IMG/VR virus record: IMGVR_UViG_3300029841_000009
Coordinates: 1 to 64,000 of that record
Strand: one strand, 5' to 3'
Source of the DNA: a virus
Lineage: Duplodnaviria; Heunggongvirae; Uroviricota; Caudoviricetes
DNA length: 64,000 bases
Shown here piece after piece: positions 1 to 63,449 of the stretch; position 1 is the stretch's first letter, and the number at the start of each line of letters is the position of its first letter. The notes below the pieces were generated by a model, which was given only the letters and a program-made list of their open reading frames with translations, had not been told where the DNA came from and did not search any database. The position numbers and the translations under genes are program-made.

Positions 1-46
1 AAAACGAGTATTTTTAGTCATCCTGTTTACCTCTTTCTCAGGAAGT

Positions 47-9629: not shown

Positions 9630-9650
9630 AAGTTTCTATACTCCTGCAAT

Positions 9651-9672
9651 AAAGGGGCCGAAGCCCCTTGTC
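9651..9672 (-). terminator. intra-operon rho-independent terminator / attenuator
   Basis: GC hairpin AAGGGGCTTCGGCCCCTT followed by TTTATT on the minus strand, between two structural genes. Confidence 0.4.
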
Positions 9673-9685
9673 TGATTCGCGAGGC

Positions 9686-10030: not shown

Positions 10031-10031
10031 C

Positions 10032-10469
10032 TTAACCAGTTACTTTTGAGCGGATCGGGTACGGCGTATTGGCATCAACATCCAGACTGATACCCGCAGT
10101 GAATTTGCCAGCCGTTAGTGGGCCAGTTGCGACGGAGTAGTTAACACGCAGATATCGCTGAACACCGGCAGGCACCTTTGCAGAAACAACTCGTTTACCT
10201 GCTGTCAGGGCGGTCTTTGCCAGTGCGCCACTATCATAAATAGTGGTCCATGAGCTGTTATTCTCACTCGTCTGCAACTGGATGTTTACAGTTGCATCAC
10301 CGCTTGCCGCGGCGGCTGCGTTAACCAGCGCCCAAAACTCAAGCGGGTAACCCACGCCGATATCACGACGTTTTCCGTCAATTGGACCGAGATCGATTAC
10401 GTCAGTAGAAGCCGCGGTATTCGTAACCGCCTGAGCTTCGGAGAACATCAACAGTTTGTCGGTGATCAT
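10032..10469 (-). CDS. hypothetical virion protein (possible capsid accessory)
   Basis: 145 aa, directly downstream of the capsid gene; Ala/Thr-rich, beta-rich-looking composition. Confidence 0.35.
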   Translation of the reverse strand: MITDKLLMFSEAQAVTNTAASTDVIDLGPIDGKRRDIGVGYPLEFWALVNAAAAASGDATVNIQLQTSENNSSWTTIYDSGALAKTALTAGKRVVSAKVPAGVQRYLRVNYSVATGPLTAGKFTAGISLDVDANTPYPIRSKVTG

Positions 10470-10520
10470 CTTCTTTCTCCATTAGTGGGTCTGTTACGAC
10501 CCACAGGTTAATAACAGGCG

Positions 10521-11513
10521 TTACACCACGCGGGCTTCTGTTTCCAGAAGCGCATCAGTTTCACGGATTGGTACACCACGGAATGAAGTCCACCACTCGC
10601 CTTCAGTCTCTTTTACGCTGATAGCCAGAGATGTTTTCTCCAGAGATTGCAGATCAAGAGCCTGGCCTACAGTGCGGTTCATGTAGAACACCGGGCGGCC
10701 CATGCCACGGTTTGGAATGCGATGTAGTGCTTTAACCATCAACTTCGCAATATTTGCGGCAGAGGATGGTTCTGAAATATTGCTGACATCGATGTTTGCA
10801 ATGCGAACAACATAACGCCAGTCACGCAGAGCAAGTCCGTTATCCCATTTGTAATGGGTGCGATAGCCTTCGTACTTGCCGCCATTAGCATCTTCCAGTG
10901 TCACCTGGCCTTTATCTTCCATCTGGATGCCAGCCTTCTGCCCTTTCGGGAAGATGCCATGCACGGTGTTTTCGCCCCACACCACTAACCAGATTGAGGT
11001 GTTATCTGTACCCGTGCCACCAGCATCAATGATGTTCTGAGCATTACCCGCAGACAGGCTGGAATAGCGGGAGGACAGTCCCATAAACTGCTGAGGGTTA
11101 ACGCTGGAATCACCATAAAACAGCGTCTGCGCCATCTGCTGATTCATCGCTTCAATAAATGCGCGGTCTTCAGACAGGCGGAATTCGGCGGTATTGCCGT
11201 TCAGATCAGCCAGTGACTTATCGACTTCCGCATAGGTTTCCAGCATGCCAACGGAATCGGTTACCTGCACTGTGGTTGATTTGCTTGGCTGTACGCCATA
11301 GTTCAGCAAACGCCAGGTAGCTGAAGGTAAACCAGAACGAATGGTGGTTCGGTGTCCGGTAGGAAGGTTCCCTTCGACAAAAGGCATATCCTGAAGGATC
11401 GGGTTAGTTTGACCGAGAAGCTCGATAATCTTATCGACTTTCCCGTTTGGATCGACGCGCTTACCCCAGTCAGCCAGCGTTAGCGCAGTTAAGCCTTTAA
11501 CAGCCATTGTCAT
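10521..11513 (-). CDS. major capsid protein
   Basis: 330 aa, follows the scaffold gene in the portal-scaffold-capsid order typical of T7/epsilon15-like podoviruses. Confidence 0.6.
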   Translation of the reverse strand: MTMAVKGLTALTLADWGKRVDPNGKVDKIIELLGQTNPILQDMPFVEGNLPTGHRTTIRSGLPSATWRLLNYGVQPSKSTTVQVTDSVGMLETYAEVDKSLADLNGNTAEFRLSEDRAFIEAMNQQMAQTLFYGDSSVNPQQFMGLSSRYSSLSAGNAQNIIDAGGTGTDNTSIWLVVWGENTVHGIFPKGQKAGIQMEDKGQVTLEDANGGKYEGYRTHYKWDNGLALRDWRYVVRIANIDVSNISEPSSAANIAKLMVKALHRIPNRGMGRPVFYMNRTVGQALDLQSLEKTSLAISVKETEGEWWTSFRGVPIRETDALLETEARVV

Positions 11514-11521
11514 TTCCTCTC

Positions 11522-12223
11522 TTATTTGCCATAGAGCACTTCGGCCGCACTACGCTGGCCTTCATTACCACCGGTGACCATGCCATCTTCAGACATCGCC
11601 TTTCCGATTTTCACGAACGTTTTGACCAGATCAGGGTGATTACCCAGCCCGGTGGTGTTCAGATATTCTTTGAGTTCAGGTGTCCCGAACTGGTCAAGCG
11701 CACGCTGTGCGGCGCTAAGGTTAGAAATCAACTTGTCGCCACCGATTTCTTTGTCGGCTTTTACATCCGCTGCCCACTGCTCGGTTGTTTTCTGCCAGGC
11801 TTCTGCCTGGCGCTGCTGAACACCTGCCAGAATCTTCGGATAAGCATCAACCAGCTTTTGCGCTTGCTCGTTGGTCAGGTTTAGTTCTCGCGCCACCGGC
11901 TCGAATTCCTTCAACGCTTCTGTATCCAGCTCTACGCCTTCGGCAGCCTGAAACTCGTACTTTTCAGGCGCACCCTCTGGTTTATCGCCGTCCTTTTTTT
12001 CATCCTGCTTATCGTTTTCAGGCTTTTTGTCATCAGCAGGTTTATCGCCATCAGCAACAGGTTGTGGCTTATCACCTTCCTGTTGTGATGGATCACCAAC
12101 TGGAGCAGGGTTATCACCTGCAGGCGCTGACGGTTCTGACGCAGCCGGAGCTGCTCCACCATCGACTGGTTGCTCATTGCAAAGACGGCGATACAGCAAA
12201 CGCTCAAATAAATTCATGATCAC
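11522..12223 (-). CDS. scaffolding protein
   Basis: 233 aa, highly acidic with a Pro/Asp/Lys-rich low-complexity N-terminal half; lies between portal and capsid. Confidence 0.55.
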   Translation of the reverse strand: MIMNLFERLLYRRLCNEQPVDGGAAPAASEPSAPAGDNPAPVGDPSQQEGDKPQPVADGDKPADDKKPENDKQDEKKDGDKPEGAPEKYEFQAAEGVELDTEALKEFEPVARELNLTNEQAQKLVDAYPKILAGVQQRQAEAWQKTTEQWAADVKADKEIGGDKLISNLSAAQRALDQFGTPELKEYLNTTGLGNHPDLVKTFVKIGKAMSEDGMVTGGNEGQRSAAEVLYGK

Positions 12224-12516
12224 TCCTGTTCACTGGCCTCTTTGGCCATCTTCAAATACTGTTCAGGGCAATGCGCCATAACGCGCTGAAACAGTTCCAG
12301 CGCCAGATTGCGTTGCCCCTCATTAAATGCCATTGCCATAGCGTCCATCGGTGAGATAGCGGAAAACACACGGCCTTTCTCCAGCACCGACCAGACAACG
12401 CGACGCCCCTGTTCACTGCTCATGACAAAGCGAATGTCATCAATTTCACGCTGTGCCATGTCACGTTGCTTACGGGCGTTTTCTTCTTTCAGTTGATCAT
12501 CTTCGTAATCTGTCAT
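12220..12516 (-). CDS. hypothetical protein
   Basis: 98-aa ORF overlapping the portal stop and scaffold start (translational coupling). Confidence 0.4.
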   Translation of the reverse strand: MTDYEDDQLKEENARKQRDMAQREIDDIRFVMSSEQGRRVVWSVLEKGRVFSAISPMDAMAMAFNEGQRNLALELFQRVMAHCPEQYLKMAKEASEQE

Positions 12517-14192
12517 TGTGATTGCCCACCCTGACCACTAACTGCATTCGCCATAGCTGACAAAACACTCGGATCCGAAGTTTTAGCTTCGCTTAGCGTC
12601 TTGGCACCCTGTGCCGCCGCCATCCCCATCGCCATCATTTGTTGCTGCTGTTGTTGCTGTGCCCGTTGCTGGCGAGCCTGCTCAACCTGTTCCTGCGGAA
12701 CAATGACGGTTGGAGACACTCCGGACATATCAGCGAATGCATCGATCGCCTGATCAACGTTGAGTTTGTCGAGAGCTTCTGGTTTCGCTTGCGCAAGTTG
12801 ACCAATGAAGTTAACCGTGGACGCCAGACTGGACAGGCCGATAGACTTCTGCGCCTGAGCCATGACGGAAATGTATTCGACCTTCAGGGGCATACCTTCC
12901 ATCACGTCTGGCGGTGGCGGCAGCATGTTTTTACGCACCATCATCGAGAAAGAGCGGTCAATGAGAGGATTAAGACATTCGTCGTTCAGACGCTCCAGAA
13001 CCGGCCCCAACATCAGAAGTTTTTCTTCTTTCATTTCGATCACCGCTTCAACAGGCATCGAGCGGGTATTGATGTTCTGCAACATCATGAACAGATCGAC
13101 AAAGTAGGCGCTGTTAATGATTTGACGAGTGTCCTGAATGTCTGCCACCAAATCTGCTGTACTGGGGTTAACCAGATAAGCAGGCCTGAAACCATCCTGA
13201 CCAGTAATCTGATCGATATACGTGATGTCGCCAGGAAGAAGGGAGGCACGCTGATTCTTGAGGGAAGTCGGAGCAACCATCGGCGGATTGGTGGCTTTAT
13301 CAATCAACTGCGACTTGCGCTTCTGGAGAAGCTGCAATGCCTTAACAGGTCCAAGCGCCAGCATACCCGGGCATGATGATCCATAAACATCTTCGCCGTT
13401 AACTTCCCAGCGCGGGGCCATAATTGGAAACTCATCGAATCCGGACTCACGCAACAACTTGTCGTTATCGCCACCAACCTCGTAATAAACCGATTTGAAT
13501 GGCTTGTTCTTGCTATCCAGCTTCGATGTATCGCGGTCAATGTTCGGGTAAACCGAATGCATCACTTCAATCCACTTCTCGTAGGTTCCGCTTTCCCACA
13601 TGCTTTTTACGGATTCGCTGACGTTATTTAGCCCGAACTCCTGAACAAGCTGACGAACAGTCATAGAGAACTTGCGAAAACAGGTGTCCACACTGCCACG
13701 AGGTGAGTTAGCCAGGTAGTAACTGCCTATCGGGAATGGCATTGTGCGAATGATGTCCTCGTCATCCTCCAGCACTGCCATTGCACCAGTGCTGTATGTG
13801 CCGAGGCTTCCGTATAACTGCGGCAGCGACTGATAGAGATTCGACTTATTGAACATATCGTTCATGCGGTTCTGCACCGCCTCAAGCCACAACTTAACAG
13901 GGCCATAATCCATCATTTCAGGATCTGGCGTAGCCAGGCGAAACCACGGACGCGCGGGGCTTGTGATGCCTGACATCATGCCGCTGGCGAGAGTGCGCGC
14001 CGCCATAGTCCCGGTCGAATCAATAATGCGTGTATTGCGTCGATCGTTACGGTTGACCTCAGAAGTCAGAAAGCGGGAACCACGCGGGTTGATGTAATCA
14101 CTCAACTCGCGCCAGTGCGGCTCGAACGACTGACGCTCGCTTTCAAGTTGTGCGAACTGTTTGTTCAATCGCTCTTTAGTTGTTTCCGCCAT
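12513..14192 (-). CDS. portal (head-tail connector) protein
   Basis: 559 aa, first large gene after the terminase; GGAG ribosome-binding site upstream of the ATG; Gln-rich C-terminus; size matches podovirus portals. Confidence 0.65.
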   Translation of the reverse strand: MAETTKERLNKQFAQLESERQSFEPHWRELSDYINPRGSRFLTSEVNRNDRRNTRIIDSTGTMAARTLASGMMSGITSPARPWFRLATPDPEMMDYGPVKLWLEAVQNRMNDMFNKSNLYQSLPQLYGSLGTYSTGAMAVLEDDEDIIRTMPFPIGSYYLANSPRGSVDTCFRKFSMTVRQLVQEFGLNNVSESVKSMWESGTYEKWIEVMHSVYPNIDRDTSKLDSKNKPFKSVYYEVGGDNDKLLRESGFDEFPIMAPRWEVNGEDVYGSSCPGMLALGPVKALQLLQKRKSQLIDKATNPPMVAPTSLKNQRASLLPGDITYIDQITGQDGFRPAYLVNPSTADLVADIQDTRQIINSAYFVDLFMMLQNINTRSMPVEAVIEMKEEKLLMLGPVLERLNDECLNPLIDRSFSMMVRKNMLPPPPDVMEGMPLKVEYISVMAQAQKSIGLSSLASTVNFIGQLAQAKPEALDKLNVDQAIDAFADMSGVSPTVIVPQEQVEQARQQRAQQQQQQQMMAMGMAAAQGAKTLSEAKTSDPSVLSAMANAVSGQGGQSQ

Positions 14193-14206
14193 TTCAATGA
14201 CTCCGG

Positions 14207-14413
14207 TTACTGACCAAGCAGCGTTTTACCGCTGGTATTAGCGGTTGATGTGTCGCCCTGAGAACCGGTAAGCAGCGTAGAACTACGACCAGCAGCAGCG
14301 CGACGGCGACGAGTTTCTTCGTCGCGGGCATCAACAACGGCGGCATCCTGCTCCTGTGGTGCTGCCTGAACTTCTGGTGTTGCAGGCACTGATGGTGAGC
14401 TACCCATGCACAT
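14207..14413 (-). CDS. small low-complexity ORF upstream of portal
   Basis: 68-aa Ala/Thr/Gln-rich ORF; weak coding evidence. Confidence 0.2.
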   Translation of the reverse strand: MCMGSSPSVPATPEVQAAPQEQDAAVVDARDEETRRRRAAAGRSSTLLTGSQGDTSTANTSGKTLLGQ

Positions 14414-14840
14414 ATCAATGACTCCGTACGCAATTAAATTATTACCAATTTAACCACATATGATTTATTTATCGTAGATAGTTGACATTTAACGCACAAA
14501 TTATTACCTTTCAGGTAACCAAAGAATTCATTCCGGTTACTAACCTGACTGGCTTGTCGTTAAATTGAACAGGTGGAGTGAGCTTTTATTTTGAGCAGTA
14601 CGGCGTATGGCACATGCGCCGATAGCGGTCTGGATACGTTTAAGGGGCACCCTCCCTGGCTGTGGCAAACGAACCAGGTAGCCGGAATGTGCAAGTCGAG
14701 CGGTTTTATTCCGCGCACGGGGATTCACCATCCCGGCGATTCGGTGTGACGCCTCGGAAGAGACGAGGGTACAACGATGAGAGCATTTATGGAGCCGCGA
14801 CAAAGTGTGGCGCCTTAACAGGCTAAGTGCTCTCAGCGTT

Positions 14841-14917
14841 GTGGCATTAGCTCAGTCGGACAGAGCAACCGCCTTCTAAGCGGTTGGTCGCAGGTTCGAA
14901 TCCTGCATGCCACGCCA
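14841..14917 (+). tRNA. tRNA-Arg (anticodon UCU), CCA-encoded
   Basis: Cloverleaf traced by hand: acceptor GTGGCAT/ATGCCAC, D-arm GCTC/GAGC, anticodon stem ACCGC/GCGGT with loop CTTCTAA, T-arm GCAGG-TTCGAAT-CCTGC, discriminator G and CCA; closely resembles E. coli argU. Confidence 0.85.
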
Positions 14918-15115
14918 GAATCACGCCTAAGGACCGTGATGCCAGAAGTTCCAGGTGCTTGGCGGTGATGGTTTCCCTTGAAGGACTATCACCACCCTTT
15001 TTACAGCAGGACGCCATTGCGATGACTTCATGCTGTAAACCAGTACAGCCACGGAAGGCATAACTCATTGCTTCCAGTTCGCCCGATTCGCCGGGCATTT
15101 TTTTAAGGTGAGATT

Positions 15116-15487
15116 ATGAACGACCAGCAAATCGAAAAAGAAATCGTTGAGAAAGGCAAAACGGCACCGCGCGTTACGCCAGACCATATCGAAGGCATTA
15201 TTGCTCAGGAGGCATATTTCACAGCAGAAGATGGTGCCTTTGGCAAAGCCATAAAAGAGAAACATACTGGCGGAGAGGTAAACTACCAGCCGCACGAATC
15301 ACTTTCTCTGCTGACGTTCTGCGTCCTGGTGCTGCGCAACGGCTTCACCGTCACCGGAGAGAGCGCCTGTGCAAGCCCGGAAAACTTTGATGCGGAAATT
15401 GGTCGGAAGATTGCCCGGCAGAATGCTGTAAACAAAATCTGGATGCTCGAAGGTTACTTGCTGAAGCAGAAGCTAAGCGAGCAATAA
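15116..15487 (+). CDS. conserved hypothetical phage protein (moron, same strand as tRNA)
   Basis: 123-aa ORF on the opposite strand to the flanking structural operon; followed by a hairpin plus T-run. Confidence 0.5.
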   Translation: MNDQQIEKEIVEKGKTAPRVTPDHIEGIIAQEAYFTAEDGAFGKAIKEKHTGGEVNYQPHESLSLLTFCVLVLRNGFTVTGESACASPENFDAEIGRKIARQNAVNKIWMLEGYLLKQKLSEQ

Positions 15488-15504
15488 CGCCGTGACATGT
15501 CACA

Positions 15505-15537
15505 ATCAGCCAGCCTATGAGCTGGCTTTGTTTTATC
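15505..15537 (+). terminator. rho-independent terminator
   Basis: Hairpin AGCCAGC-CTATGA-GCTGGCT followed by TTGTTTTAT just after the 123-aa ORF. Confidence 0.4.
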
Positions 15538-15577
15538 CTCACCAGAGGATATCAGCAGCATTATCCCATCCAGCGGA

Positions 15578-17053
15578 TTAAGCATAGGGATCGTAATCTG
15601 TGATGGCTTTGCCTTGCTGGTTCTGCTGCCCGGGAATTCGCAGACGCTTCGACACAGGGAACGCAAACGTCAGCAGTAGCGCATCGCCTTTACCAGGAGA
15701 ACGCCCAAGTCGCTCTTTGATATCTTCCTTCGGTTCGATAACGATTTTACCGTCCACGCGAACTTTGTACTCTGCCGTCGACAGGTCGTCCGCTGTTTCC
15801 TGGTCATCCAGCATGCCGCCGAGCCTCAGCCATGTCTTGCATGAGTTGAACATCTCCCCACGCTTGTTGAGCATCTGCGGGTCAGTAGACGCGCCACCGA
15901 ACGGAACAAGTTGCCATGTACGACCCCAGCCGTCACCGATTGACTTCAAACCGGTTCCGTAACCGAAGTCGATGAACACCGCGTCAGCCTGATACTGGTC
16001 TTCAAAGTCAGCGATACGCTTCGCCATAATCAGATCGTCGGTAGTCTTGTTGCCAGTCCACAGCACCTTACTGTGTAGCCCCTGCCGCAGGTATATCACC
16101 GCGTCATCAACGCCTGAATATGCCGGGTCAACACCGATTATCACCGGAGCATGTGCAACCTGCGCAGCGGTTACCACCCGTTTCATTGCCTCGTCAGTAA
16201 GACCGGTAGGGATAAACTGCAATTCAGATGCATCAGGGAATATGCCACGCACACGGATTTTAACGAAGTCGCTATCTTCCCCGTAGTCATCAACCCATTT
16301 CTGCAACTGCTGTTTGTTGGTGCCTTCCACCGTCCTGCTGTCAATCTGCGCAGTTTTCCAGCGGTGTTTGTATTTGCGGAAACATTCACGGAAACGCCCG
16401 GTGTTACGTGTAGGGTTTCCGAAAGCCACCCAGATAATCTCAGTGTCTTCGTCCGTTAGCGCACCCTCGGCAACTTCCCACACCAGATCCGCAATGTTCG
16501 ACGCTTCATCAAATACCACAATGATGCGTTTACGCTCGTTGTGTAGTCCGGCGAATGCCTCAGTGTTGTGCTCAGACCAGGGGATTGCGTCAGCTCGCCA
16601 CCGCTTGTCGTGCCCAGGGTCATTGCTGTACATCGCGGTAGCGGTACAGGTAAACCAGTCTTTCGTGATAGCAAGGTTTGACCACTTGATAATTTCCGGC
16701 CAGGTCTTCGTTCGTAGCTGGTTGTCGGTGTTGGCGGTCACCACGACCTTACAATCCTCGCAAGTGGACATGCCCCAGTTGATCAGCATTGAGATGAATG
16801 CGGATTTACCAATACCGTGACCAGAAGCACGTGCCAGCATAAGCGGCTGATATCGCGTCTCTGGATTCTGCAGGTGATCACGTATCTCTCGGAACGCATC
16901 AGCCTGCCACTGACGTGGGCCGGTGGCATGTGCCAGTTCAGTCCCCTCTTCCCCCCATGGGAACGCATAGAGGGCATAGCCAAGCGGATCGTGAGTGAAC
17001 CCTGCAATATCCTCGATTAACTGCTCTTCAGGAGATAACGCTGTATCTGTCAC
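15578..17053 (-). CDS. terL: terminase large subunit
   Basis: 491 aa; Walker A-like GHGIGKS, Walker B-like VVFDEAS, C-terminal nuclease-like region; overlaps the small-subunit gene. Confidence 0.8.
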   Translation of the reverse strand: MTDTALSPEEQLIEDIAGFTHDPLGYALYAFPWGEEGTELAHATGPRQWQADAFREIRDHLQNPETRYQPLMLARASGHGIGKSAFISMLINWGMSTCEDCKVVVTANTDNQLRTKTWPEIIKWSNLAITKDWFTCTATAMYSNDPGHDKRWRADAIPWSEHNTEAFAGLHNERKRIIVVFDEASNIADLVWEVAEGALTDEDTEIIWVAFGNPTRNTGRFRECFRKYKHRWKTAQIDSRTVEGTNKQQLQKWVDDYGEDSDFVKIRVRGIFPDASELQFIPTGLTDEAMKRVVTAAQVAHAPVIIGVDPAYSGVDDAVIYLRQGLHSKVLWTGNKTTDDLIMAKRIADFEDQYQADAVFIDFGYGTGLKSIGDGWGRTWQLVPFGGASTDPQMLNKRGEMFNSCKTWLRLGGMLDDQETADDLSTAEYKVRVDGKIVIEPKEDIKERLGRSPGKGDALLLTFAFPVSKRLRIPGQQNQQGKAITDYDPYA

Positions 17054-17727
17054 TGATTGCCATCCTGACGTTCTTTCAGTCTCTTCCTGGCTGCCGCTAT
17101 GCGATCAGCAATTGTCACATTCACATTAACATCCAGGCGTTCTTTGAATGCGTTGACGTCGACGTGCTTACCAATCAGTTCGAGGTTCTTCACCTTGTCA
17201 GGCCATTTAATTTTTTTGAGGATGCCAACCAGCTCTTTCTCGTCTCCACGGCCTTCGAACATGTCGGCCAGTTCGAAACCTGTCAGGTACTGCCGCCAGA
17301 CCTTAGGCCATTCCGAGACCGGCTTGATGCTCATATCGTCGTTGAGAATGTCAATCACGTCCATCTGGTCGATCTCCACCAGGCGCATGAGAACGTAATC
17401 AGCACTGACGCGCATTCGTTTGTTGCGCTCCTCCATCAACTCGGCAATCCGTTTCTGAATGCGTTCATCGCGCATCATGACACTGGCTTTAACTGCCGCT
17501 GTATTTGGGGAGAATCCTGCATTAATCGCAGCCTGAGTCTGGTTTTCAGGCGTTTTGATGTATGACTGGCAATAAGCCTCCTGCATTGCTGTTAGTGGCT
17601 TAAATTGCGTTGATTTGCGTTTATAGGTTTTAGGTTCAGCAGGCATCATAACCACCGTGGTAATAGTTACCGTTGTGGTAATAGTACCATGCAAAATAAA
17701 GCCGCCATAGTTGGCGGCAGTATTCAA
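17050..17727 (-). CDS. terS: terminase small subunit
   Basis: Motif QEAYCQSYIKTPENQTQAAINAGFSPNTAAVKAS typical of small terminase DNA-binding domains; true start may be the internal Met (MMPAEP). Confidence 0.6.
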   Translation of the reverse strand: MNTAANYGGFILHGTITTTVTITTVVMMPAEPKTYKRKSTQFKPLTAMQEAYCQSYIKTPENQTQAAINAGFSPNTAAVKASVMMRDERIQKRIAELMEERNKRMRVSADYVLMRLVEIDQMDVIDILNDDMSIKPVSEWPKVWRQYLTGFELADMFEGRGDEKELVGILKKIKWPDKVKNLELIGKHVDVNAFKERLDVNVNVTIADRIAAARKRLKERQDGNQ

Positions 17728-17767
17728 AACCCATCAAATTCATCATGCATAACCCACTCGTGACATG

Positions 17768-18121
17768 TCACAATATTAATTTCGTTTCATGCCAGCCTTT
17801 AGTCACCCAGCATTGCGAGTCACCATTACACGGGCATGAATTCACAGGAACTCTCTCGCCGCACTTACCGCAACGTTTTCTGCTGATCGATTTTATACGC
17901 CCGTGCACGCGCGCATCATCCTGGCGGATCAGTAACGCTATATACTCACCAAATTCGTAAGGCGCACGCCCGGGGCGACGTGTGGCACAGTTACGCTCCA
18001 GCATTTCAATTTCCTGAGCATCAAGCACAATCTCCAGCTTACGCACACCAGATGCAGCTTGTCTGGCTCTCTGAGCGGCTTTGCGCTCTGCTGCTGCCTT
18101 AGCCATTACCATATCCACCAA
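17768..18121 (-). CDS. hypothetical protein with Cys-rich C-terminus
   Basis: 117 aa, TTG start in the track; C-terminal CGKCGERVPVNSCPCNGDSQC looks like a zinc-ribbon. Confidence 0.35.
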   Translation of the reverse strand: MVDMVMAKAAAERKAAQRARQAASGVRKLEIVLDAQEIEMLERNCATRRPGRAPYEFGEYIALLIRQDDARVHGRIKSISRKRCGKCGERVPVNSCPCNGDSQCWVTKGWHETKLIL

Positions 18122-18191
18122 ACTTCACCAGACATGATTCTCGCAATCACTATCATCACCAAAGTGATAATCACAACTTTAACTGGCGGCA

Positions 18192-18569
18192 TCATTCACC
18201 ATCCTGCTCCGGCGGTTCTGGCAGCGGCATCCAGTGGGTTACCTCCTTGAGATACAGGTCTTCGCCACCACCGTCATCCCAAGTGGGCTTGCCATCATTA
18301 AACCAGTCGCCATATACGCCGACCTGAGTGTTGGGGATGCTTGGTGGGTAGTTGTTTTTAAAGTCAGCAGCTAACACATAGCATTGTCGCTCTCCCATTT
18401 CTGGCATTCGTTCACTACAGCTTATCCAACTCTCCGGAGTTACCGGAGAGTTGCCAGCCTCATACGCCACACGCATCCAGTGCATAAGCGTTTCAGTGCT
18501 CACACAGCCGCAATCAACATCAATTTTGCCGTGCTGCTGTTCCAGCCATTGCTCAAGCGTAGTGCTCAT
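18192..18569 (-). CDS. DUF551-like phage protein
   Basis: 125 aa; C-terminal VTHWMPLPEPP motif recalled as characteristic of DUF551. Confidence 0.45.
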   Translation of the reverse strand: MSTTLEQWLEQQHGKIDVDCGCVSTETLMHWMRVAYEAGNSPVTPESWISCSERMPEMGERQCYVLAADFKNNYPPSIPNTQVGVYGDWFNDGKPTWDDGGGEDLYLKEVTHWMPLPEPPEQDGE

Positions 18570-18799
18570 TTTTCATCCCCCCGATGATGCCATCTGCATC
18601 GCATCTCATAACACCCCCACTCAACACGAAAACCACATAGCCTGTGCAGATCCACCCACTTCTGCGCCATCGCTGGCGACGTGTAAATCACAGTGAATGC
18701 GTTATCTTCGTTGTCGATTTGCGTAAACGTCACTTTGTACAACAACCCACCGTCGACACATGCTGTGTTCAACGATTTATTGCTAATACCCTCAATCAT
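18566..18799 (-). CDS. hypothetical protein
   Basis: 77-aa ORF, 4-nt overlap with neighbours. Confidence 0.35.
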   Translation of the reverse strand: MIEGISNKSLNTACVDGGLLYKVTFTQIDNEDNAFTVIYTSPAMAQKWVDLHRLCGFRVEWGCYEMRCRWHHRGDEK

Positions 18800-19443
18800 T
18801 CGTACTCACCCCCCGCTGTTTTGAATTTGATCTCCGCTGCCTGCAATGCGTGTTCGACGTCGAAGCGGTCCAGCCATCCACCAAAGTGGTGCGGCATCAT
18901 TACCACCCGCTCACCGCTATTTATTGGGTGGCCCATACGGGGTTCGTAGCCGTCCGGTAACTCGACTTCCCGCGCTTCCAGTTCTGCTATGCGCTTCTCT
19001 GATGCTTCAAGTAACGCCTGCTTATCGCGTAGCGCTTCTTCCAGTTCAGCAACATGGCACTCACTATCAATAAGGTTGTTCTCTGCGGCTTCCAGCTCAA
19101 CACGCAGCTTCCCTACCGTTAGCGCAATATCCTCGTTCTCTTGGTCGCGGCGTTTGATGTATTGCTGGTTTCTTTCCCGTTCATCCAACAATGCCAGCAC
19201 GGTAACTGGATTGGCTGCGGCGATGAATTCAGCATTGGCCTGCTGTTCCATTTGGAAATCTTCATCGAAACCGCTTTCAGGATGCGCTCCTTCAATTCTG
19301 CAAATGGGAAGATATCCAACAACTTCACGATGAATTAGCGCATCACCAGCATCAAATCTCTCCTCTCCATATTCTAGCGACCACACACCACACGTTGCTT
19401 TTTCTGCCTTAGCACGCAGTGCCTGGTAATTAATTTCGCTCAC
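18796..19443 (-). CDS. Ead/Ea22-like protein
   Basis: N-terminus SEINYQALRAKAE and coiled-coil middle; GTG start preceded by AGGAGG. Confidence 0.6.
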   Translation of the reverse strand: MSEINYQALRAKAEKATCGVWSLEYGEERFDAGDALIHREVVGYLPICRIEGAHPESGFDEDFQMEQQANAEFIAAANPVTVLALLDERERNQQYIKRRDQENEDIALTVGKLRVELEAAENNLIDSECHVAELEEALRDKQALLEASEKRIAELEAREVELPDGYEPRMGHPINSGERVVMMPHHFGGWLDRFDVEHALQAAEIKFKTAGGEYE

Positions 19444-19684
19444 TGGCTGCCTCCTGCTTTTCTGCCTTCAACACCATGCGAGAACCATCATCCAGCTCCC
19501 ACACTATCTCACCACCTTCAGCCATGACCAGTTGCCACACCAATTGAGCAGCCTCATTGGTAACATCACGACCTGGATCATTGCCAACGCGCATACGTCC
19601 ACCTTCAACATCGCGCATTTTTGCCAGCATGATAGTTTTTGATAGCGGTGAAAAACCAAGCTGTAGTCGTGCTGAATTACTCAC
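19430..19684 (-). CDS. hypothetical protein (probable GTG start)
   Basis: Track ORF 19430..19717; AGGAGG-N6-GTG at codon 12 suggests the real start at 19684; the junction sequence is shared with the neighbouring Ea22-like genes. Confidence 0.35.
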   Translation of the reverse strand: MSNSARLQLGFSPLSKTIMLAKMRDVEGGRMRVGNDPGRDVTNEAAQLVWQLVMAEGGEIVWELDDGSRMVLKAEKQEAASERN

Positions 19685-20277
19685 TGGTTGCCTCCTTTGC
19701 GAAGCTGTTCCGCCCATTCTTCAAGGGATTTCTCCGCATATTCACCGGACAGGCCATCAATCGGATGCGCTTCATTAACCAACTCTTCTTTCGCTGACAA
19801 AATCATGCGTGTAACGTCGAAAACTTCACGCAAAGACTTATTGATAAATCCGTGATTGAACGCAGCAGCAAGACGGCTGGCGGTATAGTTAATCCCCTCG
19901 TTGCGTGCTTCCGCACGAATTTCAGCCAGAAAAGCATCGGTAGCTGGAGTTTCGCTGTGGTGTAGGGCATCATTGATAATCATTGCAGCAACACCAGCCT
20001 GCCCTGCATCCGTGACCGACACATGCTCAAGAGTTACGGCCATTGCGTGTTTCAGTCCGTCGTTCTCCACCACCAGCGCAGCGAGATTAGTCTCATACTC
20101 CGCAATTCGGCACATAGCATCGATATTTGTGTCCTCCAGCCGCTTAATTTCATCCAGTAGCGCCAGCACAACCTGCGGTGTGACCTTCATACGAAACGCG
20201 AGCAATTTTTGCGGCGTTGCCACGACTTTTATTGCTTCTGCTGCCTCACGCAGTGCCTGGTAATTAATTTCGCTCAC
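19681..20277 (-). CDS. Ead/Ea22-like protein (second paralog)
   Basis: Track ORF 19681..20307; AGGAGG-N6-GTG start at 20277 gives the N-terminus SEINYQALREAAE, paralogous to 18796..19443. Confidence 0.55.
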   Translation of the reverse strand: MSEINYQALREAAEAIKVVATPQKLLAFRMKVTPQVVLALLDEIKRLEDTNIDAMCRIAEYETNLAALVVENDGLKHAMAVTLEHVSVTDAGQAGVAAMIINDALHHSETPATDAFLAEIRAEARNEGINYTASRLAAAFNHGFINKSLREVFDVTRMILSAKEELVNEAHPIDGLSGEYAEKSLEEWAEQLRKGGNQ

Positions 20278-21688: not shown

Positions 21689-22756
21689 TCAGGCTTTCAA
21701 TAGCGATTCTTTCAGATATCGGGCATCAGCCAGGGCATTTGGAGTAATCTTGCGAACCCATGCATTACGGGTTGGACTCCACTTAAAGGCGCGTGATTTA
21801 AGCAGCGAACGAATGTTTGCCTCTGGTTTGCCAGGGAAATAAAACAGGATGCGGTTATCCTCTGGATCTATCTCCATAGAAAAGTCGTCGTATTCTTCGC
21901 GCTGTGCTCCTGTTACAGACTTGACCGATTCAAGCTCCTTAATACGGCTCTGTAGTCGTTTGATCTCGGCGTTATTGTTGCTCAGTGCGTATGAAGGGAA
22001 TCCGATGTGCCCACAGAAATCTCCGGCCAGTAACTCTTTGGCTTCGCTTTCTGTAAACCTGAGATCGATTAATGCAGAAAGCTGCTGTAATTGGTCTTTT
22101 TTGTATTTGCGAATGGCCTTATTTGCGGCCTTCATTTTGACGTGTGACTTCATGCAGCCTTGCAGCTTACGAAGCAACTTAAATAGCGCATCAGGATCAT
22201 CAGACGAAATTCCATTACGACCAACACCTGCGGCTTTGCTCTCGTAGTGTGATGCTTTACTTTCGCATTCAACAAACGCTTTTCTTAATAACGCATCAGC
22301 TTTAGACAAACGGCGGCGATGGCCTTTCGCGCTATAATGGTCAACTAAAATCGGCTGGCCTAACGGGATCACATCCAACAGGTCATGCGCTCGCTTATGC
22401 GCTACCGCACCTTCTTTTCTGGCTTTTTCTGCACGAGCAATATATCGGGCAAGACGCGCGTTCTGGCGTTCCTGATAGGTGTTTACGTAATCATCTCCGC
22501 GCTGCTGCTGTTCAAGCCATGCTTTGCGCAGATCTTCTGTTACGTCCACCAGCTCCGCAGGGATACAACCAGTTTGGGCTTCATAAGAGTAACCATCCTC
22601 ATAGATACGCCCATCATCTTCAACAAAGAAAAAGGTTTCGTGCTCATCGCTTTTGACCATACGACCATTAACATGGCGTAATAGGTAGCCAGTATCAGTG
22701 CTTAACAGGCTGTTAGGGTTGTTGATCCAGTCAGAAATAATTACTTGTTTATTCAT
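21689..22756 (-). CDS. conserved hypothetical protein
   Basis: 355-aa ORF driven by promoter-leader repeat copy A; followed by hairpin CGGCGGGA-N4-TCCCGCCG. Confidence 0.5.
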   Translation of the reverse strand: MNKQVIISDWINNPNSLLSTDTGYLLRHVNGRMVKSDEHETFFFVEDDGRIYEDGYSYEAQTGCIPAELVDVTEDLRKAWLEQQQRGDDYVNTYQERQNARLARYIARAEKARKEGAVAHKRAHDLLDVIPLGQPILVDHYSAKGHRRRLSKADALLRKAFVECESKASHYESKAAGVGRNGISSDDPDALFKLLRKLQGCMKSHVKMKAANKAIRKYKKDQLQQLSALIDLRFTESEAKELLAGDFCGHIGFPSYALSNNNAEIKRLQSRIKELESVKSVTGAQREEYDDFSMEIDPEDNRILFYFPGKPEANIRSLLKSRAFKWSPTRNAWVRKITPNALADARYLKESLLKA

Positions 22757-22870
22757 CAGATTTCTCCGGTTTAACCAGGGCGGGTATCGCTCGGTTTCGG
22801 GTATAACCTTAGGAAATTTTTTCCCACCTGTAAAGCACTTTTTATATAAATCTATAATTATATATTTATA
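22757..22870 (-). repeat. promoter-leader repeat, copy A (TTTACA-17-TATGGT with shared 5' leader)
   Basis: About 110 bp nearly identical to 32755-32870 and 63334-63449; lies immediately 5' of the 21689..22756 start. Confidence 0.7.
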
Positions 22871-25289: not shown

Positions 25290-25415
25290 GTTAAAACCAC
25301 GATATGTGGTATTAAAACCACATATCGTGAGTTTTTCAATGGGCAAAACAAAAAATAACCTTCTATTTGTGGTCCACCTCTCGTCTTACCATGTGAAAAC
25401 CACTAAATGTGGTAA
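25290..25415. promoter_or_regulatory. divergent operator/promoter region (OR/OL-like) with ACCAC-N5-GTGGT operators
   Basis: ACCACGATATGTGGT (perfect palindrome), ACCACATATCGTGAG and ACCACTAAATGTGGT between the Cro-like and CI genes. Confidence 0.6.
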
Positions 25416-25450: not shown

Positions 25451-26107
25451 ATGAAAAGCAACGACGAGAACATCAAGAAAGAAATAGGTCTGCGCATTCA
25501 GACTCTACGGAAACAATCCGGCATGACTGCCGGAGATCTCCAGCAAGTCACTGGAATAGGCTTAAGCACCTTGCAGAACTATGAGGCCGGATTAAGACAA
25601 CCATCTATACCTGCCATCAAGAAAATCGCGCACGCCCTGAAAGCATCAGCGCCTTATATCGCGTGCTTAACAGATAACCCGTTCCCACCCCAGAATACTA
25701 ACGCTCCTGTTATTCCTGGGCTTGTAGCTATAAAAAATGACATAGCATCGCACGCCGGAGAAAAGCCAGTGCTGGCGATAGAACAGGAGATTCTACGAAG
25801 CAAGAACATCAACCCATCGTCTCTGTCAGTTCTCCAGAGCAACGATGAGTTAATGTCACCAACAATATCCCCTGGCTCCCAAGTCCTGATTGATACAGAC
25901 GATACAGAGATTCATGAGGGGATCTATGCCCTTGAAGACAGAAATGGCCTGGTTGTTTTGAGGCACTGTAGAGTCATACCGGGTGACAATGCTGTTATGC
26001 TGTCAACCGAAAGGGATGCTGAAATGAACACTAAGCATCTGAATAACGAGGAATTTAAGCGTTATAAAGTTCTGGGCCGCGTAGTTAGTGTTGTCAACTG
26101 GTTATGA
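25451..26107 (+). CDS. cI: CI-type repressor (HTH_XRE N-terminal domain plus S24 LexA-like autopeptidase domain)
   Basis: 218 aa; N-terminal HTH (LRKQSGMTAGDLQQVTGIGLSTLQNYEAG), C-terminal Ser/Lys dyad context (LMSPT ... RYKVLGRVV). Confidence 0.8.
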   Translation: MKSNDENIKKEIGLRIQTLRKQSGMTAGDLQQVTGIGLSTLQNYEAGLRQPSIPAIKKIAHALKASAPYIACLTDNPFPPQNTNAPVIPGLVAIKNDIASHAGEKPVLAIEQEILRSKNINPSSLSVLQSNDELMSPTISPGSQVLIDTDDTEIHEGIYALEDRNGLVVLRHCRVIPGDNAVMLSTERDAEMNTKHLNNEEFKRYKVLGRVVSVVNWL

Positions 26108-26199
26108 TACACAGCACGGCGAAAGCCGTGCATTTCTACGCTCAAAAAAACCACATTTTGTGGTTTTGACAACATGTGAAAGTATAAAAGAGGCTACGC

Positions 26200-27894: not shown

Positions 27895-27925
27895 AAAAGG
27901 CCCCCGAAGGGGCCTAATCGCTACT
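27895..27925. terminator. bidirectional hairpin terminator
   Basis: AGGCCCC-GAAG-GGGCCT with an A-run 5' on plus (T-run on minus). Confidence 0.5.
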
Positions 27926-28043
27926 TGCTGCTAATGTTTATCGTCACATTCAGAGCGTTATCAGTAATCTTCCAACCCTCCCCATGTGGCGTAAACAAAG
28001 CTCCAGTAACAACGATAAAAATACACATACAGTATTTTTTCAT
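27921..28043 (-). CDS. small hydrophobic peptide (about 40 aa)
   Basis: Internal Met of track ORF 27921..28103 gives MKKYCMCIFIVVTGALFTPHGEGWKITDNALNVTINISSK; ends at the terminator hairpin. Confidence 0.35.
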   Translation of the reverse strand: MKKYCMCIFIVVTGALFTPHGEGWKITDNALNVTINISSK

Positions 28044-28539
28044 TGTATGGCCCTTACAGGCCGTTTCACGGCATCCCCACCGACGAAAACAACGCGAGAG
28101 CAAGCACGGCTGCTTGTGCTTGCATGTACGGCAACGGAGAATCCTCCCCTAAAGTCGGTGCCCGGGTGCGAATCGGCGGGAAGGTCCACAGGTATTTTAC
28201 GATTATTTTAAGATTAGTTATAGGAAAGAAATTAAACGAAAAAACTCGTTTATTTTCACAAAATCAGTAACCTACCCACAATCTGTGAGTTTGCAGGCAC
28301 AACAAGAACCACAATTTTATGAAGCATAATAGTGGACTATTATTACCTTTTGGGTAAAATTAACTTGCTGCTTGTGCTTGCGTGGTTGTTTATACAACAA
28401 CGTAATGCTGAAAGGACCGCGAATCCGATCAGCACGAAAGAACCGTCCTCAATAGGGCGGTTTTTTTGTTTCTGCCTACCAATAAACCCACACTATGTGG
28501 TTGTCTCTGTTAAAATCCCGCCGTATTGACATAAATGCG

Positions 28540-28640
28540 CCATTGGTGGACACTTTCCGAGCCGTAGCAAAATCTACGGTCGGGATTGGAACCCCGATAA
28601 TCATCATGGCGCATACCGCGTTAGCGGTTTTTTTATGCGT
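28540..28640 (+). ncRNA. candidate structured regulatory RNA upstream of the antirepressor operon (immI/c4-like antisense RNA)
   Basis: ORF-free; successive hairpins (CCGTAG-caaaat-CTACGG; CGGG-ATTGGAA-CCCG) ending in ACCGC-GTTA-GCGGT plus T7; loop ATTGGAA is complementary to the downstream loop GTTCCAAC. Confidence 0.35.
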
Positions 28641-28799
28641 AAAGCACTGCTACACCCAAATTATGGTGGGGCGTGCGGGGGAGTCGTAAGACTCGCCGGA
28701 TTCCATGGTGACCGGTAGTTCCAACCCTGTACGTCTCACCACCCAATGATTGGAACCAGACGGTGGTGAGTATCCTTAACCTTTAAGGGAACTATCACC

Positions 28800-28991
28800 A
28801 TGACAAACCTACCCCATGACTATTACGTCAACCTCGTAAAGATCCTTCTCAAGAAAGCCTCATACGCCGATAAATTCCGCCTGGCTGAAATCATCGAGCG
28901 CGAAGCTATGCGCATCGCCAGCAACGATAACGCTGTTTCTGTCGCAAAAATCTCCCTCGTAACCAAAGTAGTTATGGGAGGTGCAAAATGA
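28800..28991 (+). CDS. small ORF translationally coupled to the antirepressor (icd-like position)
   Basis: 63 aa; stop overlaps the antirepressor ATG. Confidence 0.4.
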   Translation: MTNLPHDYYVNLVKILLKKASYADKFRLAEIIEREAMRIASNDNAVSVAKISLVTKVVMGGAK

Positions 28992-30169
28992 AAACGCTTC
29001 CGACCGTTAACACCCTACAGCCTATCCTGCATAACCAGCTCCCCGTTATCACTACTGAACTACTGGCGCAATTGTATGGAACCGAGCGCCAACGTCTGAC
29101 AAACAATTTCAATAGAAACAAGGAACGTTTTATAGAAGGTAAACACTTTTTTAGGATAGAAGGTAAAGAGTTACGAGAGTTGAAGAACAAAAACTCTTTA
29201 AGAGTTCCTGTGAGAGTAGTTAACGAACCATCTTTAAGAGGGTTACAAATTCCCCCGAAAGTTCGCTCCCTCATCCTCTGGACAGAACGCGGGGCTGCAC
29301 GTCACGCCAAAATGCTTGAAACTAACCAAGCGTGGGATGTGTTCGAACGGCTGGAAGACAGCTACTTCAACCAGAACGCACAAACGGCCGCGACCGTAAC
29401 CGTCTCACCAAACAATGCTCGTGAGGTTGTCGATACGCTCAACGCCAAACCAATGTATTACGTTAAGGTGTGCAACAACGAGCCACTCACAACCTCAGCC
29501 GATGTTGCCCAAGCATTCAGCACCACAAACAATTCCATCGTTATGGCCATCGATGCGTTACGCATTCCTCGCACGGCTGCGGCGCGTCACTTCTTTAAAG
29601 AACAACGACCGCTGGAAGGAAGCGACCGCGAAATAACAATCTATCGCATGACAAAAGACGGATTTACCTTGCTCATGGAAAGTATCGACGGTCCAGGCGT
29701 GAAGGATATCAAGCTGGCCTACATTGAAGCCTTTAACGCTATCAGCAGCGTGTTAAAGGCAGAATACGAGCGAATGCTATACAACCGACTGTATCAGGAA
29801 ACAAAGATTATCCGAACGGCAACAGAACATCATCGGCTATTAACGGAACCAAACTACCGCAAGACACTAATCAAAGAGTTTGACAAGGCGACGGAGAAAA
29901 CTAAAGCGGCACTAAATCTACCAACAATGACTAAAGATGATGTGATATCAGCCTTACTTCTTGATCTGCTCAGAAACGCCAGAGCACTTATCAGTTTTGA
30001 CGAAAACCTGAATCCTCAGCTCAAGCTACTACCACCGACAGGCAAAGTAGTCGACCAAGCAGATCACAACAGCATACTCAGCGTACTGGATGCAAACCTG
30101 CCAGCCAGGACACTACAGGAGCTGATAAAAATATCTGCGGATAAACTGGCCGCAGGTGCAAAACCATAA
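28988..30169 (+). CDS. ant: phage antirepressor (AntA/ORF6N-like N-terminal domain)
   Basis: 393 aa; N-terminal VITTELLAQLYGTERQRLTNNFNRNKERFIEGKHFFRIEGKELREL resembles antirepressor N-domains; sits downstream of the RNA-like region. Confidence 0.55.
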   Translation: MKTLPTVNTLQPILHNQLPVITTELLAQLYGTERQRLTNNFNRNKERFIEGKHFFRIEGKELRELKNKNSLRVPVRVVNEPSLRGLQIPPKVRSLILWTERGAARHAKMLETNQAWDVFERLEDSYFNQNAQTAATVTVSPNNAREVVDTLNAKPMYYVKVCNNEPLTTSADVAQAFSTTNNSIVMAIDALRIPRTAAARHFFKEQRPLEGSDREITIYRMTKDGFTLLMESIDGPGVKDIKLAYIEAFNAISSVLKAEYERMLYNRLYQETKIIRTATEHHRLLTEPNYRKTLIKEFDKATEKTKAALNLPTMTKDDVISALLLDLLRNARALISFDENLNPQLKLLPPTGKVVDQADHNSILSVLDANLPARTLQELIKISADKLAAGAKP

Positions 30170-32376: not shown

Positions 32377-32757
32377 TTACTTAACGAGGAATAAAAATGG
32401 TTTATCGTTCGGCGGTGTACTCGGGGCTGGCTCGCTTTTGCTCATACGATCAGTGTACCAGGCCAGCTCCTTGTCAAAGTAAGCCTGATTAAAATAGGCC
32501 ATGAATGTGGTTTCAAATCCATAACGACCGCTAATACGCAGCATCTGATTGCCGTTCTCTGTTTCCAGATATACCTGGGCACGTTCCTGATTCTCCTTCA
32601 GCCAAGTTAAAGCCTCGTCGCACGAGGACACACGATACTCATCATCGTAGCCGTCATCGATGCGGCTTGAAGAAGAACGGCAAATCACGCCAACAGAACC
32701 AGCCAGGATAGTTTGAATTTTAAGGAAAGCGTTTTTGCGGATTTTAATCATGCTCAT
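32377..32757 (-). CDS. hypothetical protein (cargo of promoter-leader repeat copy B)
   Basis: 126-aa ORF starting right at the repeat. Confidence 0.45.
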   Translation of the reverse strand: MSMIKIRKNAFLKIQTILAGSVGVICRSSSSRIDDGYDDEYRVSSCDEALTWLKENQERAQVYLETENGNQMLRISGRYGFETTFMAYFNQAYFDKELAWYTDRMSKSEPAPSTPPNDKPFLFLVK

Positions 32758-32870
32758 CGGGTTATCTCCGGTTTAACCAGGGCGGGTATCGCTCGGTTTC
32801 GGGTATAACCATAGGAAATTTTTTCCCACCTGTAAAGCACTTTTATATAAATCTATAATTATATAATTCT
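32755..32870 (-). repeat. promoter-leader repeat, copy B
   Basis: Nearly identical to 63334-63449 and about 95 percent to 22757-22870; contains TTTACA-17nt-TATGGT and a GGAGA ribosome-binding site. Confidence 0.7.
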
Positions 32871-32919
32871 ATGAGCACAAAAAAGCCCCTTTGCAACAGG
32901 GGCTTATCATTCGTTCTGA

Positions 32920-34101: not shown

Positions 34102-34397
34102 ACATCTGTTTTGTTATCAATGAAGATTAACCCTAACCCAGCGAAGTAACACAGCAGCGCCCAGGCTGCATACGGAATGCTGGATCTGGATGTGGACTCC
34201 TTTAACATCTGCCAGTTGCGAACATTGCGACTATCTTTTAAGCCTAGTTTTTTGGCTAACTGCGAGCCGCTCATTCCGGTCAGGCCAATGACTGCCCGAA
34301 CTTCTCCACATGTAGGAGATTCCCATTCATCCGCTTTTTTTAAACAAGCCGGATTCAACATTTTTAAAACAGTATCTTTATCCATAACCATCTCCAT
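34098..34397 (-). CDS. HTH-like protein with C-terminal hydrophobic helix
   Basis: 99 aa; helix-turn-helix-like GLTGMSGSQLAKKLGL and C-terminal transmembrane-like AAWALLCYFAGLGLIF. Confidence 0.4.
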   Translation of the reverse strand: MEMVMDKDTVLKMLNPACLKKADEWESPTCGEVRAVIGLTGMSGSQLAKKLGLKDSRNVRNWQMLKESTSRSSIPYAAWALLCYFAGLGLIFIDNKTDV

Positions 34398-63336: not shown

Positions 63337-63449
63337 CGGGTTATCTCCGGTTTAACCAGGGCGGGTATCGCTCGGTTTCGGGTATAACCATAGGAAATTT
63401 TTTCCCACCTGTAAAGCACTTTTATATAAATCTATAATTATATAATTCT
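63334..63449 (-). repeat. promoter-leader repeat, copy C
   Basis: Nearly identical to copy B across about 115 bp including the start-codon context. Confidence 0.7.

Follow-up and report, generated by a model that had tools for sequence, protein, structure and literature searches.

An unannotated C4/IsrK-type RNA locus that probably silences the antirepressor of an Escherichia coli phage-plasmid

INTRODUCTION

RNAs of the C4 family are cut from a longer precursor, with RNase P acting at the 5′ end, to give a stable RNA of ~77 nucleotides (nt) that acts in trans. In phage P1, whose annotated record places Oc4, two promoters, a1, b1, c4, a2, b2, icd and ant1 on one strand and in this order, a translational block is combined with Rho-dependent polarity. 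The sar RNA of the P22 immI region is read off the strand opposite its target, to which it is fully complementary. According to a 2025 review, the c4 RNA of P1 and P7 blocks the ribosome-binding site of the ant mRNA and underlies heteroimmunity (PMC12197685). Here we analyze a stretch of 64,000 nt from a virus of the class Caudoviricetes (positions 1 to 64,000 of IMG/VR record IMGVR_UViG_3300029841_000009, hereafter the window), in which two adjacent RNA elements at 28561-28634 and 28659-28746 precede a small open reading frame (ORF) and an antirepressor-type gene.

A second line of work concerns Gifsy-1, where the short RNA IsrK, acting in trans, pairs with the downstream region and thereby lifts translation of the antirepressor more than 100-fold, and where a processed RNA of ~80 nt, STnc1160, was detected downstream of IsrK (PMC4825925). 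Hfq binding, activation of antirepressor translation in trans and partial read-through of the terminator are known for Gifsy-1 IsrK only (PMC4825925). That study likens IsrK to seqA of phage P4 and leaves the P1 c4 work uncited (neither "bacteriophage P1" nor "Citron" occurs in its text; PMC4825925), and the 2025 review, in its entries for IsrK and c4, presents the two RNAs as unrelated (PMC12197685).

RESULTS

Two RNA family members lie in tandem upstream of the antirepressor gene

A scan of the whole window with the Rfam covariance models at their curated thresholds returned four matches, two of which lie directly upstream of the small ORF and the antirepressor gene. The first is to isrK (RF01394; 28561-28634, + strand; 70.2 bits against a gathering score of 50) and the second to the C4 antisense RNA (RF01695; 28659-28746, + strand; 84.3 bits against a gathering score of 45, E = 4e-15). 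The C4 match spans model positions 1-87, that is, the full length of the model, and the two RNAs lie on the same strand with 25 nt between them. A further match at 28548-28600, to c4-a1b1 (RF03163, "a1, b1 targets of C4 antisense RNA"), reached 38.2 bits (local E = 4e-8) and so stayed below its gathering score of 46.7; membership of this family at the curated threshold was rejected, the same stretch being taken in by the overlapping isrK model. Because P1 scores 51 bits with c4-a1b1 and 35 bits with isrK, the two models describe one element. A second, permissive scan of the region (E ≤ 1) was also run, and across both scans no Rfam family besides C4, isrK and c4-a1b1 reached a significant E-value there.

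We assign the locus, which is unannotated and has recognition alleles of its own, to the C4/IsrK (immI-type) family; this kind of system is already known. It probably works as an immI-type RNA switch that silences the antirepressor of a ~48-kb Escherichia coli phage-plasmid. Its elements follow one another as an operator-like palindrome, a promoter, an a1/b1 decoy RNA with its terminator, C4 (carrying a′ and b′), a2/b2, a 63-amino-acid (aa) ORF and the antirepressor gene. The data presented here directly support the assignment of both RNAs to their families, the structures predicted for them, the complementarities with their co-variation, and the overlap of the two genes.

A preliminary description, made from the sequence without database searches, had proposed for 28480-28800 an antisense RNA made from the same transcript, of the P1 c4 type, ahead of the small ORF and the antirepressor gene, and the C4 score bears this out. 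The hairpins, loops and repeats that it described are all found in the sequence. The assignment of the RNA, given as 80-100 nt long, to 28540-28640 does not stand: this stretch holds the promoter and the IsrK/a1b1-like target mimic, with C4 further downstream, and the roles of the two elements had been reversed, the GTTCCAA element being part of the C4 RNA. The absence of any ORF, also claimed there, agrees with the closest RefSeq plasmid relative, which has a 1.1-kb stretch without an annotated coding sequence at this place, although mechanically called ORFs of 30-64 aa do overlap the flagged region.

Predicted structures and complementary sites

The IsrK-like RNA (28561-28634, + strand), the equivalent of the a1/b1 region of P1 and of P4 seqA by its isrK score, fold and covariation, is predicted to form two 5′ hairpins followed by a Rho-independent terminator hairpin (28615-28634) with a U7 tail, the intrinsic terminator that had already been noticed. 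The a1 site (UUGGAAC, 28586-28592, + strand) lies in the loop of hairpin 2, a hairpin of 4-5 base pairs (bp) whose ATTGGAA loop occupies 28585-28591, about 10 nt from the 28575 first given for it. The b1 site (UCAUCAUGG, 28601-28609, + strand) forms 9 bp with b′, one of them G-U. As is typical of isrK, the RNA lies directly 5′ of a C4-like RNA and an antirepressor gene and is complementary to the downstream RNA. Going by the homologous IsrK of Gifsy-1, it would be a primary transcript, ended by termination, whose role is to counteract the antisense RNA.

The C4 RNA (28659-28746, + strand) folds with a minimum free energy (MFE) of -44.3 kcal/mol (z = -4.57), a value matched by none of 200 shuffled sequences. 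Both the MFE and the centroid structure reproduce that of the model, in which a long basal stem surrounds two hairpins, leaving an exposed loop (b′) and a single-stranded joint (a′). The b′ site (CCAUGGUGA, 28703-28711, + strand) lies in the hairpin-2 loop (28700-28711), and a′ (GUUCCAA, 28718-28724, + strand) in the joint. The element GTTCCAAC (RNA GUUCCAAC), previously read as a hairpin loop at about 28722, is present at 28718-28725; strictly, it is this joint of a multibranch RNA. Alignment to the annotated ends of P1 c4 predicts a mature RNA of 79 nt (28665-28743).

Downstream of C4, the a2 hairpin (28735-28770, + strand) presents a2 (UUGGAAC, 28750-28756) in its loop. The stem has 9 bp (28735-28743 with 28762-28770), one more than originally counted, and its loop holds the second copy of the 10-mer GATTGGAACC, as described; the two copies, at 28584-28593 and 28748-28757, are the only ones in the 64 kb, against a shuffle expectation of 0.21. 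Since the 5′ arm of this hairpin, CUCACCACC, doubles as the 3′ strand of the basal stem of C4, C4 and the a2 hairpin are mutually exclusive in the unprocessed transcript. The arm GGTGGTGA is invariant in 12 of 13 aligned loci, the exception being P1. The ribosome-binding region of the small ORF (28785-28802, + strand) has its Shine-Dalgarno sequence AAGGGA (28785-28790) inside a small hairpin and ends in b2 (UCACCAUG, 28795-28802, + strand), which includes the AUG (28800-28802) of the 63-aa ORF. Pairing of a′ GUUCCAA with a2 UUGGAAC gives 7 bp, and pairing of b′ CCAUGGUGA with b2 gives 8 bp including the AUG. The local duplexes at the sites have energies of -9.6 to -12.8 kcal/mol, the b′-b2 duplex reaching -12.8 kcal/mol.

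The recognition sites co-vary across loci

A distant BLAST search with the leader yielded 167 phage records. In all ten further loci that were scored for both models at the gathering threshold (vB_YpM_41, Kp4865-1, PhiR12_1, GER2, Stx2_131990, ST512-KPC3phi13.3, APSE-2, phiSTEC1589, phi346 and Gifsy-1), C4 comes after isrK at a distance of ~25 nt. In Salmonella phage SW-37, C4 reaches the gathering threshold, and the upstream unit falls under that of isrK.

Covariation was measured on 12 loci with nine different a sequences, including P1, Gifsy-1, APSE-2 and phages of the Shiga-toxin (Stx) and Klebsiella groups. A MAFFT alignment of whole leaders placed a2 one column off in several rows, and fixed windows anchored on the invariant flanks were used in its place. 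All cells hold a standard pair, both between a1 and a′ (84/84) and between a′ and a2 (84/84), and five of the seven positions have changed on both sides in a compensatory manner. The covariation score of the a site is 0.80 against 0.19 for shuffles, none of 500 of which reached the observed value, and sliding the partner by 1-3 columns lowers pairing to 21-48%. GER2, left out of the formal count on account of a 1-nt insertion in all three of its a sites (UUAGGAAC / GUUCCUAA), is likewise perfectly complementary at them. For the b sites, whose loops vary in length, we took the longest complementary run between the hairpin-2 loop and the b1 or b2 region. Cognate runs average 7.9 (b1) and 8.6 (b2) nt against 4.9 and 5.8 after permutation, and none of 20,000 permutations attained the observed values. 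These site-level counts replaced whole-segment RNAduplex matrices of the C4 reader segments against the flanks, which hairpin stems made noisy.

A matched series of alleles is also found within the 48-kb phage-plasmid family itself. Ten members, a few percent apart overall, carry four a/b combinations, made up of the a alleles UUGGAAC or UUGGCGU and the b′ loops ATTCCATGGTGA, GTATCATGATGA, TTCGTCATTGTGT or GTTTGTCATTGTG (as DNA). Each of the four is internally matched, with a1 identical to a2 and complementary to a′, and with b1 and b2 matching b′; in each, b2 lies over the start codon. The allele of the window is also that of vB_YpM_39, and the closest plasmid relative (97.8% identity) has another b allele. 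Four matched alleles are what one would expect of sites that determine the specificity of immunity, as in the case of P1 and P7 (PMC12197685).

These data bear on a reading in which a sar-like antisense RNA would be transcribed over the ribosome-binding site from the other strand, on the model of P22 immI, a possibility raised alongside P1 c4 in the preliminary description, or in which the hairpins and complementarities would be chance features of a spacer. An antirepressor gene following an untranslated region with hairpins offers a general resemblance and nothing beyond it. The Rfam scans matched C4 and gave no sar-type match at the gathering threshold or at E ≤ 1, the families found being C4, isrK and c4-a1b1 only, and a promoter scan found no promoter-like site on the minus strand in 28500-28900; a sar-type cis-antisense RNA was rejected on both counts. 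The features lie beyond chance, since two Rfam models score far over their thresholds, the C4 fold has a z-score of -4.57 and the complementarities co-vary across loci. We attach next to no probability to either version of this reading.

Promoter and operator-like palindrome

A putative promoter on the + strand (28526-28554) consists of TTGACA (28526-28531), a 17-nt spacer and GACACT (28549-28554), and can be aligned to the TTGAC.../TATAxT promoters that precede isrK in Gifsy-1, in P1 (P1c4) and at other loci. The predicted transcription start is near G28561.

The operator-like palindrome reported earlier is present as CCAC-N5-GTGG (CCACACTATGTGG, 28488-28500), 26 bp upstream of the -35 hexamer, and does not overlap the predicted core promoter. 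Its arms are kept in 10/10 family members, with a variable center. The window has eight exact CCAC-N5-GTGG sites against 0.59 expected; two of them (25297-25309 and 25400-25412), with a near-copy at 25318-25330, lie just upstream of the gene for an XRE/peptidase-S24 repressor (25451-26107), and another (26151-26163) abuts a promoter TTGACA-N17-TATAAA. It is plausible from this distribution that the palindrome at 28488 is an operator of the XRE/S24 prophage repressor, in parallel with Oc4 of P1. Taken as a set, the palindromes around the XRE/S24 gene and at two other promoters are likely to be the operators of the prophage repressor.

Downstream genes

The 63-aa ORF (28800-28991, + strand), a positional analogue of P1 icd, belongs to phrog_7886 (E = 2e-46, function category unknown), has no Pfam match and is annotated as a hypothetical protein in RefSeq relatives. 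Its stop overlaps the start of the next gene in the sequence ATGA (28988-28991). That gene (28988-30169, + strand) encodes an antirepressor-type protein of 393 aa with an N-terminal ORF6N domain (Pfam, 2e-21) and a Phage_pRha match (3.8e-12), and many PHROG anti-repressor families match it. Homology to the P1 proteins was considered and rejected in both cases: the small ORF does not align with Icd, falls into a different PHROG (7886 as opposed to 1426) and has the lack of a Pfam match already mentioned, and the best E-value of the 393-aa protein with P1 Ant1 is 7.

The phage-plasmid and neighboring features

From ~22 kb on, the window is a ~48-kb, non-mobilizable E. coli phage-plasmid, which encodes RepA, ParA and the XRE/peptidase-S24 repressor. 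Positions 22000-64000 match 48-kb phage-plasmids at 99%, and over 40-64 kb the window is 99% identical to several plasmids. A 2-kb query has an identity of 97.8% to NZ_CP069971.1 and 94% to Yersinia phage vB_YpM_39, and 80% or more of it is present in 71 of 5,426 complete genomes. The first ~20 kb (1-20000) match structural genes of a chromosomal prophage present in thousands of E. coli genomes; near 20-22 kb, two different replicons or records seem to have been joined in the window. That the window might be a 48-kb circle wrapped onto itself was rejected, as it has no long self-repeat and its first ~20 kb match a chromosomal prophage. A sequence of ~120 bp occurs three times in the phage-plasmid part at 94-100% identity (22752-22870, 32754-32872 and 63332-63452).

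Two further RNA loci lie upstream of the palindrome. A ryfA match (RF00126; 27893-28189, - strand; 142 bits), with a counterpart in vB_YpM_41, contains on the minus strand a small hydrophobic ORF within 27921-28103 (MKKYCMCIFIVVTGALFTPHGEGW...), which suggests a RyfA/TimP-like type I toxin on the phage-plasmid. Next to it, an unannotated unit resembling a small RNA (sRNA; 28333-28468, + strand) comprises a promoter-like TGGACT-N16-TAAAAT (28333-28360), a predicted RNA of ~100 nt (28367-28468) and a strong terminator (28441-28467); its sole Rfam match is a weak one to RNAI (26.7 bits). The first 15 nt of this RNA (GCTGCTTGTGCTTGC) recur as a direct repeat within the ryfA locus (28109-28123), so that the RNA would be complementary to the ryfA transcript, and we regard it as a candidate antitoxin sRNA of the TimR/RyfB-like kind. 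In GER2 and phiSTEC1589, Stx-type phages and lambdoid relatives, matches to sRNA-Xcc1 (69-76 bits) are found downstream of the C4/antirepressor module at a distance of a few hundred bases, at 2197-2280 and 2510-2600 of the respective loci (L008 and L012).

DISCUSSION

We propose that a single promoter (~28526-28554) would drive a transcript from near 28561, and that most transcripts would end at the terminator at 28615-28634 to give a 74-nt IsrK-like RNA. Transcripts that read through would carry C4, to be excised as a stable RNA of ~79 nt, whose b′ (hairpin loop) and a′ (joint) would pair with b2 and a2 on the mRNA further downstream. As the start codon of the 63-aa ORF lies inside b2, this pairing would block translation of the ORF, and because the antirepressor start overlaps the stop of that ORF, antirepressor synthesis would fall with it, a drop probably strengthened by Rho-dependent polarity. 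The IsrK-like RNA, since it carries copies of the same targets (a1 and b1), would compete for C4, both within the read-through transcript (in cis) and as the short RNA (in trans), and the balance between short RNA and C4 would decide antirepressor production. For transcription, termination, read-through, processing and the sign of regulation we infer the course of events from P1, P4 and Gifsy-1, and by the same analogy the window RNAs may depend on Hfq.

Several points weigh against this model. Neither the small ORF nor the antirepressor is related to its P1 counterpart (Icd and Ant1, respectively), and we infer translational coupling of the two genes from the ATGA overlap only. The -10 hexamer GACACT is weak, and a simple consensus scan missed the promoter. 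Cofolding of whole molecules, C4 with either IsrK or the mRNA, gains only ~0.3 kcal/mol over the monomers, and with nearly no gain MFE cofolding alone does not predict the interaction; C4 binding would have to start as loop-loop kissing contacts, which lie outside what MFE folding models. Even in the absence of C4, a local hairpin is predicted to close the ribosome-binding region. Finally, the authors of the Gifsy-1 study invoke a structural switch in cis together with a 45-codon upstream ORF, not a trans-acting C4, and constitutive STnc1160 failed to relieve IsrK toxicity in their work (PMC4825925).

Some of these observations would be accommodated by a switch acting in cis only, in which the C4-like stretch is an inhibitory mRNA structure and the short IsrK-like RNA is the sole diffusible regulator, opening that structure to allow translation. 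This is the experimentally supported model for the homologous Gifsy-1 locus (PMC4825925). The full leader of the window is predicted to fold with a1/b1 paired to a′/b′ in cis (-98.3 kcal/mol, z = -4.68), a fold that also counts in favor of the model proposed above and that is the counterpart of "structure A", the translationally silent form demonstrated for Gifsy-1, and the local hairpin over the ribosome-binding region points in the same direction. However, a switch of this kind leaves unexplained the perfect co-variation of a2/b2 with a′/b′, as well as the position of b2 on the start codon. The 45-codon ORF of the Gifsy-1 model is also absent here: a Gifsy-1-like orf45 running through C4 was rejected, as the frame from the AUG inside C4 (28664) closes after 8 codons. 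Moreover, a processed species of ~80 nt does exist in Gifsy-1, and P1 c4 is a proven trans-acting repressor. On balance, we consider a purely cis-acting switch unlikely.

The Gifsy-1 data can themselves be related to C4. The orf45/STnc1160 region of Gifsy-1 (34131-34214, - strand, of locus L014) has a full-length Rfam C4 match of 69 bits, and the first AUG of orf45 is the AUG in the conserved 5′ strand of C4 (AAUUAUGGUGGGG), so that the published orf45 and the C4 RNA are the same sequence. The nucleotide sequence of orf45 is conserved and its protein sequence is not (PMC4825925), which fits this stretch being a C4 RNA.

An immunity of the P4 type, in which the C4-family RNA would mainly cause premature termination through seqA-like and seqC-like sites rather than block ribosome binding, appears somewhat less likely again than the cis-acting switch. 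P4 has the same tandem of isrK-like RNA and C4, its CI RNA is described as terminating transcription by pairing with seqA and seqC (PMC4825925), and the window has an intrinsic terminator between a1/b1 and C4. The placement of b2 points instead to translational control, since it overlaps the start codon in all four family alleles and, in P1 and the lambdoid relatives, either overlaps the Shine-Dalgarno sequence or adjoins it. Between C4 and the ORF, no site resembling a terminator is predicted. Both the cis-acting switch and termination of the P4 type belong to the same family as variants, and neither excludes the ribosome-blocking model that we prefer.

This phage-plasmid family is common in clinical E. 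coli, and the module, which is absent from current annotation, would decide the quiescence of the plasmid-prophage. The isrK + C4 tandem also precedes antirepressors in many Stx-converting, Salmonella and Klebsiella phages and in APSE-2. The a allele UUGGAAC occurs in an Stx1c prophage as well, and UUGGCGU is common to family members and Gifsy-1. Tentatively, a and b may be independently exchangeable specificity modules, and the C4 and IsrK-like RNAs of a resident phage-plasmid could act in trans on the antirepressors of co-resident prophages, an idea to which we give less credence than to its negation. If it were true, and if one matching site sufficed for partial pairing, repression or derepression would reach Shiga-toxin phages too, and a network of RNA-based immunity and cross-induction would span unrelated mobile elements.

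Compared with the described systems, the locus is closest in plan to immI of P1 and P7. It shares with them the C4 family (84 bits in the window, 69 bits in P1), the order of elements, two-site recognition copied upstream and downstream, a downstream site on the ribosome-binding region, a small ORF overlapping the antirepressor start, a palindrome resembling a repressor operator upstream, and recognition alleles that differ among close relatives. Unlike P1, however, the window has UUGGAAC in place of UUGACAG at a and UCACCAUG in place of GUUAGUGA at b, and its b2 covers the start codon where that of P1 covers the Shine-Dalgarno sequence. Its a1/b1 unit amounts to a complete RNA of the IsrK type that ends in a strong terminator (70 bits with isrK against 35 in P1), its small ORF is not Icd, its antirepressor is no homologue of Ant1, and its primary repressor is of the XRE/S24 type instead of C1.

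The isrK - STnc1160/orf45 - anrP locus of Gifsy-1 resembles the window in that both models match with equal spacing, that the antirepressor has an ORF6N-type N-terminus (aligned starts MKTLPTVNTLQPILHNQLPVITTELLAQ in the window and MTTQISVETLSPITHNQIPVITTELLAH in Gifsy-1), and that the expected transcripts are a short terminated RNA and a read-through mRNA. It differs in having its antirepressor gene directly after b2, whereas a separate 63-aa ORF intervenes in the window, in a coupling orf45 that runs through the C4 sequence, where the corresponding window frame is closed, and in its recognition sites (a = UUGGCGU, b′ = UCGGUGAU). The P4 locus with its CI RNA, seqA, seqB and seqC has the tandem as well (isrK-like 60.8 bits, C4 74.9 bits), with one processed RNA that pairs with sites upstream and downstream of itself, but it has no pair of small ORF and antirepressor gene downstream. 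P22 immI shares the control of an antirepressor gene at the ribosome-binding region by an antisense RNA; in contrast to sar, regulator and target of the window lie on the same strand, and their complementarity is short and interrupted.

The basic biology established for P1 is unchanged by these results, whose wider interest is confined to the matched four-allele series in one phage-plasmid family and to the three-way covariation that unites P1, P4 and Gifsy-1. Judged by their sequences, P1 c4, P4 CI and Gifsy-1 IsrK/STnc1160 are one RNA architecture with a readable two-site specificity code, of which the phage-plasmid locus carries its own version.

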